From: Giardia intestinalis
Lineage: Eukaryota
Direction: 5' to 3' (one strand)
Length of the DNA: 8,483 nt
NCBI GenBank assembly: GCA_000002435.2
Contig: AACB03000021.1
In this document: piece after piece, positions 1 to 8,483 of the stretch
Layout of the letters: each line of letters begins with the position of its first letter
Position numbering within the stretch: the first letter of the stretch is position 1
Program-made: the position numbers and the translations under genes
Notes under the pieces: model-generated
What the model saw: only the letters and a program-made list of their open reading frames with translations
What the model was told of the DNA's origin: nothing
Database searches by the model: none

Positions 1-3000
1 GCAGCAAGAGGCGCCCGTCGAAGAACCTGAAGCGCCCGTTGAGGAGCCCGAGGAGCACGCCTTGCAGACCCCGCGGAGCCCGTCGAAGAACCTGAAGCGC
101 CCGTTGAGGAGCCCGAGGAGGCAGGCCTTGCAGAGCCCGCGGAGCCCGTCGAAGAACCCGAGCAGCAAGAGGCGCCCGTCGAAGAACCTGAAGCGCCCGT
201 TGAGGAGCCCGAGGAGGCACGCCTTGCAGACCCGCGGAGCCCGTCGAAGAACCTGAAGCGCCCGTTGAGGAGCCCGAGGAGGCACGCCTTGCAGAGCCCG
301 CGGAGCCCGTCGAAGAACCTGAAGCGCCCGTTGAGGAGCCCGAGGAGGCACGCCTTGCAGACCCGCGAGCCCGTCGAAGAAAACCTGAAGCGCCCGTTGA
401 GGAGCCGAGGAGGCACGCCTTGCAGAGCCCGCGGAGCCCCGTCGAAGAACCCGAGCAGCAAGAGGCGCCCGTCGAAGAACCTGAAGCGCCCGTTGAGGAG
501 CCCGAGGAGGCACGCCTTGCAGACCCGCGAGCCCGTCGAAGAACCTGAAGCGCCCGTTGAGGAGCCCGAGGAGGCACGCCTTGCAGAGCCCGCGGAGCCG
601 TCGAAGAACCTGAAGCGCCCGTGAGGAGCCCGAGGAGGCACGCCTTGCAGAGCCCGCGGAGCCCGTCGAAGAACCTGAACGCCCGTTGAGGAGCCCGAGG
701 AGGCACGCCTTGCAGAGCCCGCGGAGCCCGTCGAAGAACCCCGCAGCAAGAGGCCCGTCGAAGAACCTGAAGCGCCCGTTGAGGAGCCCGAGGAGGCACG
801 CCTTGCAGACCCGCGGAGCCCGTCGAAGAACCCGAGCAGCAAGAGGCCCGTCGAAGAACCTGAAGCGCCCGTTGAGGAGCCCGAGGAGGCACGCCTTGCA
901 GAGCCCGCGGAGCCCGTCGAAGAACCCGAGCAGCAAAGAGGCGCCCGTCGAAGAACCTGAAGCGCCCGTTGAGGAGCCCGAGGGAGGCACGCCTTGCAGA
1001 GCCCCGCGGAGCCCGTCGAAGAACCTGAAGCGCCCGTTGAGGAGCCCCGAGGAGGCACGCCTTGCAGGAGCCCGCCGGCGAGGCCCCGTCGAAGAACCTG
1101 AAGCGCCCCGTTGAGGAGCCCGAGGAGGCACGCCTTGCAGAGCCCGCGGAGCCCGTCGAAGAACCCGAGCAGCAAGAGGCGCCCGTCGAAGAACCTGAAG
1201 CGCCCGTTGAGGAGCCCGAGGAGGCACGCCTTGCAGAGCCCGCGGAGCCCGTCGAAGAACCCGAGCAGCAAGAGGCGCCCGTCGAAGAACCTGAAGCGCC
1301 CGTTGAGGAGCCCGAGGAGGCACGCCTTGCAGACCCCCGCGGAGCCCGTCGAAGAACCTGAAGCGCCCGTTGAGGAGCCCGAGGAGGCACGCCTTGCAGA
1401 GCCCGCGGAGCCCGTCGAAGAACCCGAGCAGCAAGAGGCGCCCGTCGAAGAACCTGAAGCGCCCGTTGAGGAGCCCGAGGAGGCACGCCTTGCAGACCCG
1501 CGGAGCCCGTCGAAGAACCCGAGCAGCAAGAGGCGCCCGTCGAAGAACCTGAAGCGCCGTTGAGGAGCCCGAGGAGGCACGCCTTGCAGACCCCGCGGAG
1601 CCCGTCGAAGAACCTGAAGCGCCCGTTGAGGAGCCCGAGGAGGCACGCCTTGCAGACCCGCGGAGCCCGTCGAAGAACCTGAAGCGCCCGTTGAGGAGCC
1701 CGAGGAGGCACGCCTTGCAGAGCCCGCGGAGCCCGTCGAAGAACCTGAAGCGCCCGTGAGGACCCGAGGAGCACGCCTTGCAGAGCCGCGGAGCCCGTCG
1801 AAGAACCTGAAGCGCCCGTTGAGGAGCCCGAGGAGGCACGCCTTGCAGAGCCCGCGGAGCCCGTCGAAGAACCCGAGCAGCAAGAGGCGCCCGTCGAAGA
1901 ACCTGAAGCGCCCGTTGAGGAGCCCGAGGAGGCACGCCTTGCAGAGCCCGCGGAGCCCGTCGAAGAACCCGAGCAGCAAGAGGCGCCCGTCGAAGAACCT
2001 GAAGCGCCCGTTGAGGAGCCCGAGGAGGCACGCCTTGCAGACCCCGCGGAGCCCGTCGAAGAACCCGAGCAGCAGAGGCGCCCGTCGAAGAACCTGAAGC
2101 GCCCGTTGAGGAGCCCGAGGAGGCACGCCTTGCAGACCCCGCGGAGCCCGTCGAAGAACCTGAAGCGCCCGTTGAGGAGCCCGAGGAGGCACGCCTTGCA
2201 GAGCCCGCGGAGCCCGTCGAAGAACCTGAAGCGCCCGTTGAGGAGCCCGAGGAGGCACGCCTTGCAGACCCGCGGAGCCCGTCGAAGAACCTGAAGCGCC
2301 CGTTGAGGAGCCCGAGGAGGCACGCCTTGCAGAGCCCGCGGAGCCCGTCGAAGAACCCGAGCAGCAAGAGGCGCCCGTCGAAGAACCTGAAGCGCCCGTT
2401 GAGGAGCCCGAGGAGGCACGCCTTGCAGACCCCGCGGAGCCCGTCGAAGAACCCGAGCAGCAAGAGGCGCCCGTCGAAGAACCTGAAGCGCCCGTTGAGG
2501 AGCCCGAGGAGGCACGCCTTGCAGACCCCGCGGAGCCCGTCGAAGAACCCGAGCAGCAAGAGGCGCCCGTCGAAGAACCTGAAGCGCCCGTTGAGGAGCC
2601 CGAGGAGGCACGCCTTGCAGACCCCGCGGAGCCCGTCGAAGAACCCGAGCAGCAAGAGGCGCCCGTCGAAGAACCTGAAGCGCCCGTTGAGGAGCCCGAG
2701 GAGGCACGCCTTGCAGACCCGCGGAGCCCGTCGAAGAACCCGAGCAGCAAGAGGCGCCCGTCGAAGAACCTGAAGCGCCCGTTGAGGAGCCCGAGGAGGC
2801 ACGCCTTGCAGACCCCGCGGAGCCCGTCGAAGAACCTGAAGCGCCCGTTGAGGAGCCCGAGGAGGCACGCCTTGCAGAGCCCGCGGAGCCCGTCGAAGAA
2901 CCCGAGCGCGAGGCGCCCGTCGAAGAACCTGAAGCGCCCGTTGAGGAGCCCGAGGAGGCACGCCTTGCAGAGCCCGCGGAGCCCGTCGGAAGAACCTGAA

Positions 3001-6000
3001 GCGCCCGTTGAGGAGCCCGAGGAGGCACGCCTTGCAGAGCCCGCGGAGCCCGTCGAAGAACCTGAAGCGCCCGTTGAGGAGCCCGAGGAGGCACGCCTGC
3101 AGACCCCGCGGAGCCCGTCGAAGAACCCCTCGGACCAGCGCCCGTTGAGGAGCCCGAGGAGGCACGCCTTGCAGACCCCGCGGAGCCCGTCGAAGAACCC
3201 GAGCAGCAAGAGGCGCCCGTCGAAGAACCTGAGCGCCCGTTGAGGAGCCCGAGGAGGCACGCCTTGCAGACCCCGCGGAGCCCGTCGAAGAACCCGAGCA
3301 GCAAGAGGCGCCCGTCGAAGAACCTGAAGCGCCCGTTGAGGAGCCCGAGGAGGCACGCCTTGCAGACCCGCGGAGCCGTCGAAGACCCGAGCAGCAAGAG
3401 GCGCCGTCGAAGAACCTGAAGCGCCCGTTGAGGAGCCCGAGGAGGCACGCCTTGCAGACCCCGCGGAGCCCGTCGAAGAACCCGAGCAGCAGAGGCGCCC
3501 GTCGAGAACCTGAAGCGCCCGTTGAGGAGCCCGAGGAGGCACGCCTTGCAGACCCGCGGAGCCCGTCGAGAACCCGAGCAGCAAGAGGCGCCCGTCGAAG
3601 AACCTGAAGCGCCCGTTGAGGAGCCCGAGGAGGCACGCCTTGCAGACCCCGCGGAGCCCGTCGAAGAACCCGAGCAGCAAGAGGCGCCCGTCGAAGAACC
3701 TGAAGCGCCCGTTGAGGAGCCCGAGGAGGCACGCCTTGCAGACCCCGCGGAGCCCGTCGAAGAACCCGAGCAGCAAGAGGCGCCCGTCGAAGAACCTGAG
3801 CGCCCGTTGAGGAGCCCGAGGAGGCACGCCTTGCAGACCCCGCGGAGCCCGTCGAAGAACCCGAGCAGCAAGAGGCGCCCGTCGAAGAACCTGAAGCGCC
3901 CGTTGAGGAGCCCGAGGAGGCACGCCTTGCAGACCCGCGGAGCCCGTCGAAGAACCTGAAGCGCCCGTTGAGGAGCCCCGAGGAGGCACGCCTTGCAGAG
4001 CCCGCGGAGCCCGTCGAAGAACCCGAGCAGCAAGAGGCGCCCGTCGAAGAACCTGAAGCGCCCGTTGAGGAGCCCGAGGAGCACGCCTTGCAGACCCCGC
4101 CGGGAGCGCCGTCGAAGAACCTGAAGCGCCCGTTGAGGAGCCCGAGGAGGCACGCCTTGCAGACCCGCGGAGCCCGTCGAAGAACCTGAAGCGCCCGTTG
4201 AGGAGCCCGAGGAGGCACGCCTTGCAGACCCCGCGGAGCCCGTCGAAGAACCTGAAGCGCCCGTTGAGGAGCCCGAGGAGCACGCCTTGCAGAGCCCGCG
4301 GAGCCGTCGAAGAACCTGAGCGCCCGTTGAGGAGCCCGAGGAGGCACGCCTTGCAGAGCCCGCGGAGCCGTCGAAGAACCCGAGCAGCAAGAGGCGCCGT
4401 CGAAGAACCTGAAGCGCCCGTTGAGGAGCCCGAGGAGGCACGCCTTGCAGACCCCGCGGAGCCCGTCGAAGAACCTGAAGCGCCCGTTGAGGAGCCCGAG
4501 GAGGCACGCCTTGCAGACCCGCGGAGCCCGTCGAAGAACCTGAAGCGCCCGTTGAGGAGCCCGAGGAGGCACGCCTTGCAGACCCCGCGGAGCCCGTCGA
4601 AGAACCTGAAGCGCCCGTTGAGGAGCCCGAGGAGGCACGCCTTGCAGAGCCCGCGGAGCCCGTCGAAGAACCCGAGCAGCAAGAGGCGCCCGTCGAAGAA
4701 CCTGAAGCGCCCGTTGAGGAGCCCGAGGAGGGCACGCCTTGCAGACCCGCGGAGGCCCCGTCGAAGAACCTGAAGCGCCCGTTGAGGAGCCCGAGGAGGC
4801 ACGCCTTGCAGAGCCCGGCGGAGCCCGTCGAAGAACCTGAGCGCCCGTTGAGGAGCCCGAGGAGGCACGCCTTGCAGACCCCGCGGAGCCCGTCGAAGAA
4901 CCTGAAGCGCCCGTTGAGGAGCCGAGGAGGCACGCCTTGCAGAGCCCGCGGAGCCCGTCGAAGAACCTGAAGCGCCCGTTGAGGAGCCCGAGGAGGCACG
5001 CCTTGCAGAGCCCGCGGAGCCCGTCGAAGAACCCGAGCAGCAAGAGGCGCCCGTCGAAGAACCTGAAGCGCCCGTTGAGGAGCCCGAGGAGGCACGCCTT
5101 GCAGACCCCGCGGAGCCCGTCGAAGAACCGAGCAGCAAGAGGCGCCCGTCGAAGAACCTGAAGCGCCCGTTGAGGAGCCCGAAGGAGGCACGCCTTGCAG
5201 ACCCCGCGGAGCCCGTCGAAGAACCTGAAGCGCCCGTTGAGGAGCCCGAGGAGGCACGCCTTGCAGAGCCCGCGGAGCCCGTCGAAGAACCCGAGCAGCA
5301 AGAGGCGCCCGTCGAAGAACCTGAAGCGCCCGTTGAGGAGCCCGAGGAGGCACGCCTTGCAGAGCCCGCGGAGCCCGTCGAAGAACCCGAGCAGCAAGAG
5401 GCGCCCGTCGAAGAACCTGAAGCGCCCGTTGAGGAGCCCGAGGAGGCACGCCTTGCAGACCCCGCGGAGCCCGTCGAAGAACCTGAAGCGCCCGTTGAGG
5501 AGCCCGAGGAGGCACGCCTTGCAGACCCGCGGAGCCCGTCGAAGAACCTGAAGCGCCCGTTGAGGAGCCCGAGGAGGCACGCCTTGCAGACCCGCGGAGC
5601 CCGTCGAAGAACCCGAGCAGCAAGAGGCGCCCGTCGAAGAACCTGAAGCGCCCGTTGAGGAGCCCGAGGAGGCACGCCTTGCAGACCCCGCGGAGCCCGT
5701 CGAAGAACCTGAAGCGCCCGTTGAGGAGCCCGAGGAGGCACGCCTTGCAGAGCCCGCGGAGCCCGTCGAAGAACCTGAAGCGCCCGTTGAGGAGCCCGAG
5801 GAGGCACGCCTTGCAGAGCCCGCGGAGCCCGTCGAAGAACCTGAAGCGCCCGTTGAGGAGCCCGAGGAGGCACGCCTTGCAGAGCCCGCGGAGCCCGTCG
5901 AAGAACCTGAAGCGCCCGTTGAGGAGCCCGAGGAGGCACGCCTTGCAGAGCCCGTCGAAGAACCTGAAGCGCCCGTTGAGGAGCCCGAGGAGGCACGCCT

Positions 6001-8483
6001 TGCAGAGCCCGCGGAGCCCGTCGAAGAACCTGAAGCGCCCGTTGAGGAGCCCGAGAGGCACGCCTTGCAGAGCCCGTCGAAGAACCTGAAGCGCCCGTTG
6101 AGGAGCCCGAGGAGGCACGCCTTGCAGAGCCCGCGGAGCCCGTCGAAGAACCTGAAGCGCCCGTTGAGGAGCCCGAGGAGGCACGCCTTGCAGAGCCCGT
6201 CGAAGAACCTGAAGCGCCCGTTGAGGAGCCCGAGGAGGCACGCCTTGCAGACCCGCGGAGCCCGTCGAAGAACCTGAAGCGCCCGTTGAGGAGCCCGAGG
6301 AGGCACGCCTTGCAGAGCCCGTCGAAGAACCTGAAGCGCCCGTTGAGGAGCCCGAGGAGGCACGCCTTGCAGAGCCCGTCGAAGAACCTGAAGCGCCCGT
6401 TGAGGAGCCCGAGGAGGCACGCCTTGCAGAGCCCGCGGAGCCCGTCGAAGAACCTGAAGCGCCCGTTGAGGAGCCCGAGGAGGCACGCCTTGCAGAGCCC
6501 GTCGAAGAACCTGAAGCGCCCGTTGAGGAGCCCGAGGAGGCACGCCTTGCAGAGCCCGCGGAGCCCGTCGAAGAACCTGAAGCGCCCGTTGAGGAGCCCG
6601 AGGAGGCACGCCTTGCAGAGCCCGTCGAAGAACCTGAAGCGCCCGTTGAGGAGCCCGAGGAGGCACGCCTTGCAGAGCCCGCGGAGCCCGTCGAAGAACC
6701 TGAAGCGCCCGTTGAGGAGCCCGAGGAGGCACGCCTTGCAGAGCCCGCGGAGCCCGTCGAAGAACCTGAAGCGCCCGTTGAGGAGCCCGAGGAGGCACGC
6801 CTTGCAGACCCCGCGGAGCCCGTCGAAGAACCCGAGCAGCAAGAGGCGCCCGTCGAAGAACCTGAAGCGCCCGTTGAGGAGCCCGAGGAGGCACGCCTTG
6901 CAGACCCGCGGAGCCCGTCGAAGAACCTGAAGCGCCCGTTGAGGAGCCCGAGGAGGCACGCCTTGCAGAGCCCGCGGAGCCCGTCGAAGAACCTGAAGCG
7001 CCCGTTGAGGAGCCCGAGGAGGCACGCCTTGCAGAGCCCGCGGAGCCCGTCGAAGAACCTGAAGCGCCCGTTGAGGAGCCCGAGGAGGCACGCCTTGCAG
7101 ACCCGCGGAGCCCGTCGAAGAACCCGAGCAGCAAGAGCGCCCGTCGAAGAACCTGAAGCGCCCGTTGAGGAGCCCGAGGAGGCACGCCTTGCAGACCCCG
7201 CGGAGCCCGTCGAAGAACCTGAAGCGCCCGTTGAGGAGCCCGAGGAGGCACGCCTTGCAGAGCCCGCGGAGCCCGTCGAAGAACCCGAGCGCAAGAGGCG
7301 CCCGTCGAAGAACCTGAAGCGCCCGTTGAGGAGCCCGAGGAGGCACGCCTTGCAGAGCCCGCGGAGCCCGTCGAAGAACCTGAAGCGCCCGTTGAGGAGC
7401 CCGAGGAGGCACGCCTTGCAGACCCCGCGGAGCCCGTCGAAGAACCCGAGCAGCAAGAGGCGCCCGTCGAAGAACCTGAAGCGCCCGTTGAGGAGCCCGA
7501 GGAGGCACGCCTTGCAGAGCCCGCGGAGCCCGTCGAAGAACCCGAGCAGCAAGAGGCGCCCGTCGAAGACCTGAAGCGCCCGTTGAGGAGCCCGAGGAGG
7601 CACGCCTTGCAGAGCCCGCGGAGCCCGTCGAAGAACCTGAAGCGCCCGTTGAGGAGCCCGAGGAGGCACGCCTTGCAGACCCCGCGGAGCCCGTCGAAGA
7701 ACCCGAGCAGCAAGAGGCGCCCGTCGAAGAACCTGAAGCGCCCGTTGAGGAGCCCGAGGAGGCACGCCTTGCAGACCCGCGGAGCCCGTCGAAGAACCCG
7801 AGCAGCAAGAGGGCCCGTCGAAGAACCTGAAGCGCCCGTTGAGGAGCCCGAGGAGGCACGCCTTGCAGACCCGCGGAGCCCGTCGAAGAACCTGAAGCGC
7901 CCGTTGAGGAGCCCGAGGAGGCACGCCTTGCAGAGCCCGCGGAGCCCGTCGAAGAACCCGAGCAGCAAGAGGCGCCCGTCGAAGAACCTGAAGCGCCCGT
8001 TGAGGAGCCCGAGGAGGCACGCCTTGCAGACCCCGCGGAGCCCGTCGAAGAACCTGAAGCGCCCGTTGAGGAGCCCGAGGAGGCACGCCTTGCAGAGCCC
8101 GCGGAGCCCGTCGAAGAACCTGAAGCGCCCGTTGAGGAGCCCGAGGAGGCACGCCTTGCAGAGCCCGCGGAGCCCGTCGAAGAACTGAACGCCCGTTGAG
8201 GAGCCCGAGGAGGCAGCCTTGCAGAGCCGCGGAGCCCGTCGAAGAACCTGAAGCGCCCGTTGAGGAGCCCGAGGAGGCACGCCTTGCAGACCCGCGGAGC
8301 CCGTCGAAGAACCTGAAGCGCCCGTTGAGGAGCCCGAGGAGGCACGCCTTGCAGACCCCGCGGAGCGTCGAAGAACCTGAAGCGCCCGTTGAGGAGCCCG
8401 AGAGGCACGCCTTGCAGACCCGCGGAGCCCGTCGAAGAACCTGAAGCGCCCGTTGAGGAGCCCGAGGAGGCACGCCTTGCAGA
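1..8483 (+). CDS. Internal fragment (no start, no stop) of a putative giant acidic Pro/Glu-rich tandem-repeat protein with repeat PVEEPEAPVEEPEEARLA[E/D]PAE, with or without the PVEEPEQQEA pre-insert. As given, the frame is interrupted by many 1-nt indels, so this may be a pseudogene or an error-containing read.
   Basis: The core consists of three 18-nt sub-repeats (cccgtcgaagaacccgag / cccgtcgaagaacctgaa / cccgttgaggagcccgag). These differ only at positions 6, 9, 12, 15 and 18, which are the third codon positions of this frame, so all three encode PVEEPE. Almost all unit-length variants are multiples of 3 (57, 66, 96, plus 27-nt inserts and +3/+6 core variants). The longest clean stretch in this frame is about 6261-6913 (about 217 codons). 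A minus-strand Ser/Gly-rich frame (SAGSARRASSGSSTGASGSSTG) shares the same wobble positions and cannot be excluded. Confidence 0.4.
240..305. repeat. Reference canonical 66-nt unit (core 240-293, linker gagcccgcggag 294-305)
   Basis: Read directly from the sequence. The adjacent unit 175-239 is the 65-nt variant with linker gacccgcggag at 229-239. Confidence 0.9.
1067..1090. other. Divergent linker island 'ggagcccgccggcgaggccccgtc' replacing the canonical 'gagcccgcggagcccgtc'
   Basis: Direct comparison with the canonical unit. This is the local maximum of irregularity in the indel-rich 5' part of the window. Confidence 0.6.
2344..2822. repeat. Run of five consecutive insert-bearing units (96, 96, 96, 95, 96 nt), each being the 30-nt pre-insert plus core plus D-type linker
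   Basis: Units fall at 2344-2439, 2440-2535, 2536-2631, 2632-2726 (CCC linker at 2716-2726) and 2727-2822. Each begins with cccgtcgaagaacccgagcagcaagaggcg. Confidence 0.85.
3128..3140. other. Unique 13-nt segment 'cctcggaccagcg' replacing the canonical 7-nt 'tgaagcg' inside a core (net +6 nt, in-frame)
   Basis: This is the only place in the window where the core sequence is substituted rather than changed by a 1-nt indel. In the PVEEPE frame it reads EEPLGPAPVEE instead of EEPEAPVEE. Confidence 0.6.
5696..6818. repeat. Insert-free sub-domain of 18 units lacking the 30-nt pre-insert. It contains all nine 57-nt units, alternating with 66-nt units as a 123-nt higher-order repeat (5894-6674).
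   Basis: The 'gag' short linkers lie at 5948-5950, 6070-6072, 6193-6195, 6315-6317, 6372-6374, 6495-6497 and 6618-6620. Full linkers interleave at 6005-6016, 6127-6138, 6429-6440, 6552-6563 and 6675-6686. No 'cagcaagagg' pre-insert occurs between 5624 and 6818. Confidence 0.85.

Follow-up and report, generated by a model that had tools for sequence, protein, structure and literature searches.

The stretch of DNA analysed here, 8,483 nucleotides (nt) in all and hereafter called the window, is a tandem array from end to end and probably comes from the interior of an in-frame repeat of great length that codes, on the plus strand, for an acidic Glu/Pro protein. In the scheme we propose, the array would encode at least 2841 residues of an extremely acidic Glu/Pro/Ala/Val polypeptide, in which the heptad [A/E]PVEEPE is arranged in units of 19, 22 and 32 residues that close with EEARLA(E/D)PA. 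Such an array would have grown, and be kept uniform, through unequal recombination among its units or slippage in replication, and the 46 breaks of frame in the raw letters would be homopolymer errors of long-read sequencing. A low-complexity tandem-repeat region of a protein is a known kind of element; the present one is unusually long, has no relative in the collections searched and is probably coding.

Modular architecture of the array

The array was parsed with Tandem Repeats Finder (TRF) and with a purpose-written graph aligner that threads the window through five modules (Table 1). TRF arrays with periods of 66, 96, 123, 131 and 162 nt jointly span positions 1-8483, and the five-module grammar (15 nt, an optional 30 nt, 42 nt and an optional 9 nt) accounts for 8483 of the 8483 bases with 107 edits (1.26%). 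This bears out directly the claim of a first-pass annotation that the whole window is repetitive, since the graph alignment leaves no unique, non-repeat sequence within 1-8483. Its estimate of about 111 copies likewise agrees with the 111 A modules and 111 C modules counted by the aligner. There are 109 complete units (seven of 57 nt, 60 of 66 nt and 42 of 96 nt) and one partial unit at each end. The lengths of the modules (15, 30, 42 and 9 nt) and of the units (57, 66 and 96 nt) are all divisible by 3, and the G+C content is flat along the window at 68-70%.

Three kinds of genuine variation were recognised among the copies, which are otherwise probably identical: the 30-nt insert may be there or not, the same is true of the 9-nt junction, and one site of that junction is either G or C. 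This variation is structured. The GAC junction, encoding DPA, is found in 34 of 43 units that carry the 30-nt insert versus 20 of 60 that do not (Fisher p = 7e-6). All seven 57-nt units, which have neither the 9-nt junction nor a SacII site, sit inside twelve consecutive units, a clustering equalled by none of 20000 random placements. Locally clustered variants and linkage between insert and junction are the texture of local duplication and unequal exchange, and the clustering of length variants would be explained if units exchange by unequal recombination or by replication slippage. At a larger scale the unit types follow one another without periodicity: no string of more than seven of them recurs, which is what shuffles give as well, and we detected no higher-order periodicity or large internal duplication in the unit order beyond chance as judged against these shuffles. 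Given the non-periodic unit order and the structured variants, the array was judged to be neither a rolling-circle concatemer nor a duplicated block of the assembly. As the order is non-periodic, long reads are also provided with a fingerprint on which to align.

It is plausible that the array reaches past both edges of the window; both ends are cut in the middle of a unit, and the units show no substitution divergence toward either end. Consistent with the earlier proposal that gene start, stop and regulatory signals lie outside, ATG is absent from both strands of the window, the corrected frame described below neither starts nor stops within it, and nothing in the window resembles a promoter or a terminator. 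The warning that such an array is prone to collapse or expansion in assembly holds for short reads; here the sequence is a long-read consensus with no repeated block above chance and with a usable fingerprint. Similarly, the caution about copy number was fair, and within the window we saw no internal sign of collapse or expansion. A restriction check with SacII had also been suggested, on the premise that the enzyme cuts once per full-linker unit and gives a 66/96-bp ladder. One cut in each unit with a 9-nt junction and the 66- and 96-bp rungs are indeed predicted, but the fragments of 123 and 180 bp that arise from the 57-nt units were omitted. There are 98 CCGCGG sites in the raw letters and 103 after correction, and the predicted fragments are of 66 bp (54), 96 bp (42), 123 bp (5) and 180 bp (1).

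Frame breaks and coding frame

The nearer problem of quality is not copy number but frameshifting homopolymer errors, which the first-pass annotation had missed. One-base insertions and deletions (indels) shift the phase at 46 of 109 successive unit starts in the raw window. According to the graph alignment, the edits comprise 74 deletions, 31 insertions and 2 substitutions, i.e. 105 indels, and in 28 of the 31 insertions the added base repeats its neighbour. Because the edits are nearly all homopolymer-length indels, with hardly any substitutions, we infer that the window is an uncorrected long-read consensus. Two published accounts (PMC8812927, PMC9262707) describe homopolymer-length errors as a typical residue of long-read-only assemblies that survives short-read polishing in repeats. 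The one-base irregularities are thus most likely long-read homopolymer errors and not biology.

The most frequent irregularity is an 8-nt junction, GACCCGCG, which occurs 23 times versus 31 times for the intact GACCCCGCG (examples at 229-237, 5525-5533, 6248-6256 and 6903-6911). It is one deletion away from either type of junction, and the dynamic-programming aligner scored it as the EPA type lacking a G. As every other class of indel follows homopolymers, we reassigned it to the DPA type with a run of four C shortened to three. Given this reassignment, the deletion rate per run climbs with run length, from 0.24% for single bases to ~2% and ~3% where two or three bases are alike, and reaches 43% (23 of 54) for the run of four C. 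This junction is present even in the clean region of the window and overlaps the SacII site CCGCGG. Base modification at CCGCGG, besides homopolymer length, may contribute to the 43% rate of miscalls. The density of edits is uneven by about five-fold, with 34 in 1-1500, 37 in 3001-5000 and only 7 in 5001-7000, and is raised at the right end; a greater number of errors toward the left and right ends would fit dwindling read support at the ends of a contig. The sole two substitutions lie at 124 (GCACGCC to GCAGGCC) and 742, one of the two falling within the 30-nt insert, and since they are in the noisy left part they may be errors as well.

When the indels are corrected, frame 1 of the plus strand reads EPVEEPE[QQEAPVEEPE]APVEEPEEARLA[E/D-PA], with 0 stops across 2841 codons, a result that depends on the indels being errors. 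The heptad [A/E]PVEEPE is present in three copies per 96-nt unit and in two per 57- or 66-nt unit, and comparison of these copies provides the principal evidence for the frame. The second and third heptads, h2 (GCGCCCGTCGAAGAACCTGAA) and h3 (GCGCCCGTTGAGGAGCCCGAG), differ at 5 sites, and each of the 5 is a synonymous change at a third position of this frame. The two forms of the first heptad, h1a and h1b, differ at 2 sites, and both of these are again third positions of the same frame. Under a random spread over the three codon positions, the h2/h3 pattern alone has p ~0.004 for one named frame. These wobble-only differences argue for selection at the protein level in the phase of plus frame 1.

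After correction five of the six frames are open. Plus frame 3 was rejected as it contains two TGA stops per unit. Plus frame 2 (SPSKNLKRPLRSPRRHALQ) and minus frame 1 (RGLCKACLLGLLNGRFRFFDG) were rejected despite third positions that are 100% G+C, for in both each difference between the sub-repeats is non-synonymous and radical. In plus frame 1 it is the first codon position that is 100% G+C, because of the codons for E, P, A, V, R, L, Q and D. All 24 of the mechanically listed open reading frames (ORFs) start in the decoy plus frame 2, where many TTG starts lie.

A role of the repeat as a structured RNA, as an element resembling clustered regularly interspaced short palindromic repeats, or as a regulatory repeat was ruled out. 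There were 0 Rfam matches and no inverted repeats in the window, and the module grammar leaves no unique spacers between the repeats. Moreover, of 100 dinucleotide shuffles 99 fold more stably than the plus-strand RNA of 6258-6617 itself (z = +2.8). Such weak folding fits a purine-loaded strand with little self-complementarity.

Table 1. Modules of the array grammar and located features of the window
Feature	Coordinates	Length	Strand	Sequence	Basis or status
Module A		15 nt		GAGCCCGTCGAAGAA	obligate
Module B		30 nt		CCCGAGCAGCAAGAGGCGCCCGTCGAAGAA	optional insert
Module C		42 nt		CCTGAAGCGCCCGTTGAGGAGCCCGAGGAGGCACGCCTTGCA	obligate
Module D		9 nt		GAGCCCGCG	optional junction, EPA type (GAG)
Module E		9 nt		GACCCCGCG	optional junction, DPA type (GAC), alternative to D
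Whole tandem array, 111 units (109 complete), A + optional B + C + optional D/E	1..8483		+		graph alignment; corrected frame open
Truncated first unit, begins at base 6 of the 30-nt module B	1..75		+		left edge cuts unit
Garbled patch, several insertions in one junction, local consensus noise	1066..1085		.	GCAGGAGCCCGCCGGCGAGGCCCCG	letters versus module grammar
Five successive 96-nt units with DPA junction (type ABCE)	2341..2819		+		unit census
Garbled patch	3121..3140		.	AAGAACCCCTCGGACCAGCGCCC (expected AAGAACCTGAAGCGCCC)	letters versus module grammar
Eight successive 96-nt units with DPA junction	3183..3939		+		unit census
Garbled junction	4095..4110		.	GACCCCGCCGGGAGCGCCG	letters versus module grammar
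Sub-block with all seven 57-nt units, mostly alternating with 66-nt units	5891..6617		+		unit census
Longest error-free stretch, no stop, pure EPVEEPE... repeat	6258..6902	215 codons	+		in-frame reading
First two bases (GA) of the following module	8482..8483		+		right edge cuts unit

Predicted product and its analogues

The corrected segment corresponds to 2841 residues or ~312 kDa, composed of 40% E, 22% P, 17% A and 9% V, while each unit supplies a single Arg and a single Leu, and Lys is absent; its net charge would be about -1048. A single-sequence AlphaFold2 model of the 215-codon stretch 6258-6902 has a mean predicted local distance difference test score of 52.7 and no secondary structure, and no Pfam family scored above threshold in any of the four open frames submitted. 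The model fits a product that is predicted to be an intrinsically disordered, extended polyanion, the chain being kept extended and disordered by charge repulsion and proline. By analogy with the linkers discussed below, such a product would most likely belong to a protein that is secreted or exposed at the surface, in which it would serve as a long polyanionic spacer, as a brush or in binding cations.

Searches for relatives returned none that we regard as homologous. Exact searches with the units in genome, viral and metagenome collections gave no match, and degenerate PVEEPEAPVEEPE scans of the same three kinds of collection recovered no further piece of the array, their matches being confined to short linkers of unrelated proteins. 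Comparison with phages and plasmids using blastn in its distant mode was equally negative. At the protein level, word-indexed searches found no match for the E/P consensus, for an ORF of plus frame 2 of the type that a gene caller would report, or for the translation of the whole minus strand (a mosaic of the three minus frames). An exact look-up of the ORF at 6286-6930 gave no record, and the repeat peptide strings were not matched in the literature. An exhaustive phmmer search of 1.84 billion representative proteins produced 34 matches at E <= 0.001, the best at 5.5e-9 and none below 1e-10. Those inspected are all short PVEEPE-like linkers (up to ~25 heptads) in Big_4, S-layer-like, GDSL lipase, AIG1 GTPase and FAM186 proteins, and the EEARLA tail is absent from all of them. 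We rejected these linkers as homologs on account of their composition-driven scores and the unrelated families that host them, and retain them as an analogy; the resemblance is one of convergent low complexity, not homology.

The analogy is nevertheless instructive. The linkers (loci L001-L006; P0006, P0011, P0013) share with the array an identical heptad in the same sense and a Glu/Pro/Val/Ala composition. As spacers in bacterial proteins, they connect folded domains outside the cell (Big_4, S-layer-like, CarboxypepD_reg) or immediately precede a C-terminal membrane anchor. However, they have 5-25 heptads, in contrast to the roughly 330 heptad copies (at least 2841 residues) of the array, and have neither its EEARLA(E/D)PA tail nor its QQE insert, nor a higher-order unit of 19, 22 or 32 residues. 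They are also hosted by unrelated proteins of Firmicutes and of eukaryotes. Unlike the proteins with PVEEPE linkers, the array contains no folded domain that could be found by Pfam or by AlphaFold2 on 215 codons. Taken more broadly, linkers of the PEAPVEE type (L001-L008; P0001-P0034) occur in many unrelated bacterial and eukaryotic proteins from sequences with a G+C content of 28-63%. The linker precedes a C-terminal anchor in L005 and L006 and lies between extracellular domains in L002/P0006, while L007 and L008, in which the short tract is the same, are two closely similar versions of a single AT-rich protein.

Several better known repeat systems offer partial parallels. The PEVK region of titin consists of tandem Pro/Glu/Val-rich modules of ~26-28 residues, which grew by unit duplication and form a disordered elastic segment of hundreds to thousands of residues. 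It is Lys-rich with mixed charge, and is encoded in animal muscle by exons whose units have diverged; the array, in contrast, has no Lys, a charge of about -1000, units of 19, 22 and 32 residues and near-identical DNA. The (Glu-Pro)n-(Lys-Pro)n spacer of TonB is an extended, rigid span across a compartment, tens of residues long and with a basic half. It resembles the array in its Glu-Pro repeats, but the array amounts to thousands of residues with a higher-order unit, which TonB lacks. Among bacterial proteins, Ehrlichia TRP47 and TRP120 and the central acidic repetitive domain of MamJ have acidic disordered repeats of ~19-90 residues with copy numbers that vary between strains. The likeness lies in highly acidic, disordered tandem repeats; their copies are few (units to tens), the motifs and G+C content are different, and no similarity to them was detected in the sequence searches run. 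Finally, the serine-rich repeat glycoproteins of Gram-positive bacteria are proteins of thousands of residues made of SX dipeptides (SASA/SVSE), found in low-G+C Firmicutes and associated with a SecA2/Y2 locus, a special signal peptide and LPXTG. They bear comparison only with a minus-strand reading of the window, as very long, near-perfect Ser-rich tandem arrays; the minus-frame repeat, SGSSTGA/SARRAS, contains Arg and Cys and is not made of SX dipeptides, and any signal peptide, anchor or accessory Sec locus would lie beyond the window.

Strand, competing explanations and significance

Choice of strand requires more than the wobble pattern. By speaking of a gene, the first-pass annotation presumed a strand and a frame that it had not established. 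We favour the plus strand for four reasons, none of them decisive. At each of the eight independent public loci matching the degenerate sequence PVEEPEAPVEEPE, it is the E/P frame that runs on into a long ORF with non-repeat flanks. The plus strand is 58% purine. Plus frame 1 uses CGC for Arg, where minus frame 2 would use AGG and CGT, codons that are rare in G+C-rich prokaryotes. Lastly, on the minus strand the 30-nt insert would place a Cys-Cys pair in a Ser/Gly tract.

Several observations weigh against a plus-strand acidic protein. The wobble-only differences between heptads settle the phase and not the strand, as minus frame 2 has identical third positions, and the G/C variant of the junction is synonymous in minus frame 2 (GGC/GGG) but exchanges E for D in plus frame 1. 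A GC frame-plot would favour plus frame 2 and minus frame 1, whose third positions are 100% G+C. The scan with the degenerate PVEEPEAPVEEPE leans toward E/P codons, so that the eight-of-eight agreement in E/P sense is biased. The window offers neither a start or stop nor a signal peptide or flanking domain, and no homologous protein was found for the frames searched, so that translation is a prediction. Further, the AlphaFold2 model was built without an alignment, and the function was assigned from composition and from analogy with non-homologous linkers.

The converse interpretation is a minus-strand gene for a basic repeat rich in Ser, Gly, Thr and Ala, AGSARRASSGSSTGASGSSTG(ASCCSGSSTG)S, which would belong to a mucin-like or serine-rich surface protein and possibly be glycosylated. 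All three minus frames are free of stops over 8483 nt, and in minus frame 2 (AGSARRASSGSSTGASGSSTGS), whose corrected composition is 41% S, 22% G, 17% A and 9% T, the heptad differences are all synonymous too (TCG/TCA, GGC/GGT, TCC/TCT), as is the junction variant. Absence of stops is, however, a by-product of base composition, since T makes up 8% of the plus strand and TGA is the sole stop triplet present. With all its Arg codons being AGG or CGT, a Cys-Cys pair in each insert, a pyrimidine-rich strand, neither a Pfam match nor a homolog, and natural loci of the PVEEPEAPVEEPE type that read in the E/P sense (in a scan that favours E/P codons), we regard such a gene as unlikely. A very improbable alternative sees in the array a satellite without coding function, or a once-coding repeat that has decayed, in which GACCCGCG and the other indels are real and no plus frame is maintained. 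The raw plus frames do hold 62-80 stops each, with a longest open stretch of 449 codons, GACCCGCGG is seen 19-23 times, including in the clean region 5200-7100, and no homologous protein was found. Against this, decay should have added substitutions, of which there are 2 versus 105 indels; the indels follow homopolymer length, a signature of sequencing; the true length variants are all multiples of 3; and the sub-repeat differences are limited to one codon position.

A different kind of doubt concerns length. The array might be real and its length and unit order a product of assembly, i.e. an orphan contig made only of repeats, or an over-expanded or mis-joined consensus of reads lying wholly within the repeat; the true locus could then be well below 8.5 kb in length, or above it. 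The character of the sequence as an uncorrected long-read consensus with 1.26% error speaks for this, as does the distribution of errors, which are densest in 1-1500 and 3000-5000, elevated at the right end and sparsest in 5000-7000, as expected from uneven or ambiguous read support. Both ends are cut within a unit, the length of the window is odd, and the scanned collections hold no other piece of the array. On the other hand, the longest repeated run of unit types, at seven, is at the level of shuffles and there is no big duplicated block such as a mis-join or expansion should produce; the insert-junction linkage and the local cluster of 57-nt units are biological structure; and the 57/66/96-nt variants give long reads a fingerprint for alignment. 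We consider an artefact of this sort doubtful; it touches length alone and is compatible with the coding explanation. The most far-reaching form of the plus-strand reading, which we put forward tentatively, is that the array was assembled at about its real size and that its translation yields a single polyanionic domain of more than 2800 residues without a break, with ~40% Glu, 22% Pro, a charge near -1000 and no detectable relative among the 1.84 billion representatives.

In practical terms, the region is unfit for annotation as it stands. With 46 frameshifts, two decoy frames that have 100% G+C at third positions and a minus strand free of stops, any automatic gene model here would be wrong. 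That the window is internal to an array is useful as a warning to annotators and unsurprising in itself. Spanning reads are required before any copy number is quoted, and the non-periodic order of 57-, 66- and 96-nt units provides a ready fingerprint for validating the assembly. It is likely that copy number varies between strains, which raises the possibility of a typing marker.

If its length is real, the array would encode an exceptionally long polyanionic Glu/Pro repeat without a known relative, and its product is a candidate component of a surface or matrix. An uninterrupted domain of more than 2800 residues, if true, would suggest a dedicated function, for example as an extracellular polyelectrolyte brush, a sponge for cations or minerals, or a spacer of the envelope; and should the source be a bacterium or an archaeon, it would rank among the largest prokaryotic domains that are purely low-complexity and disordered.

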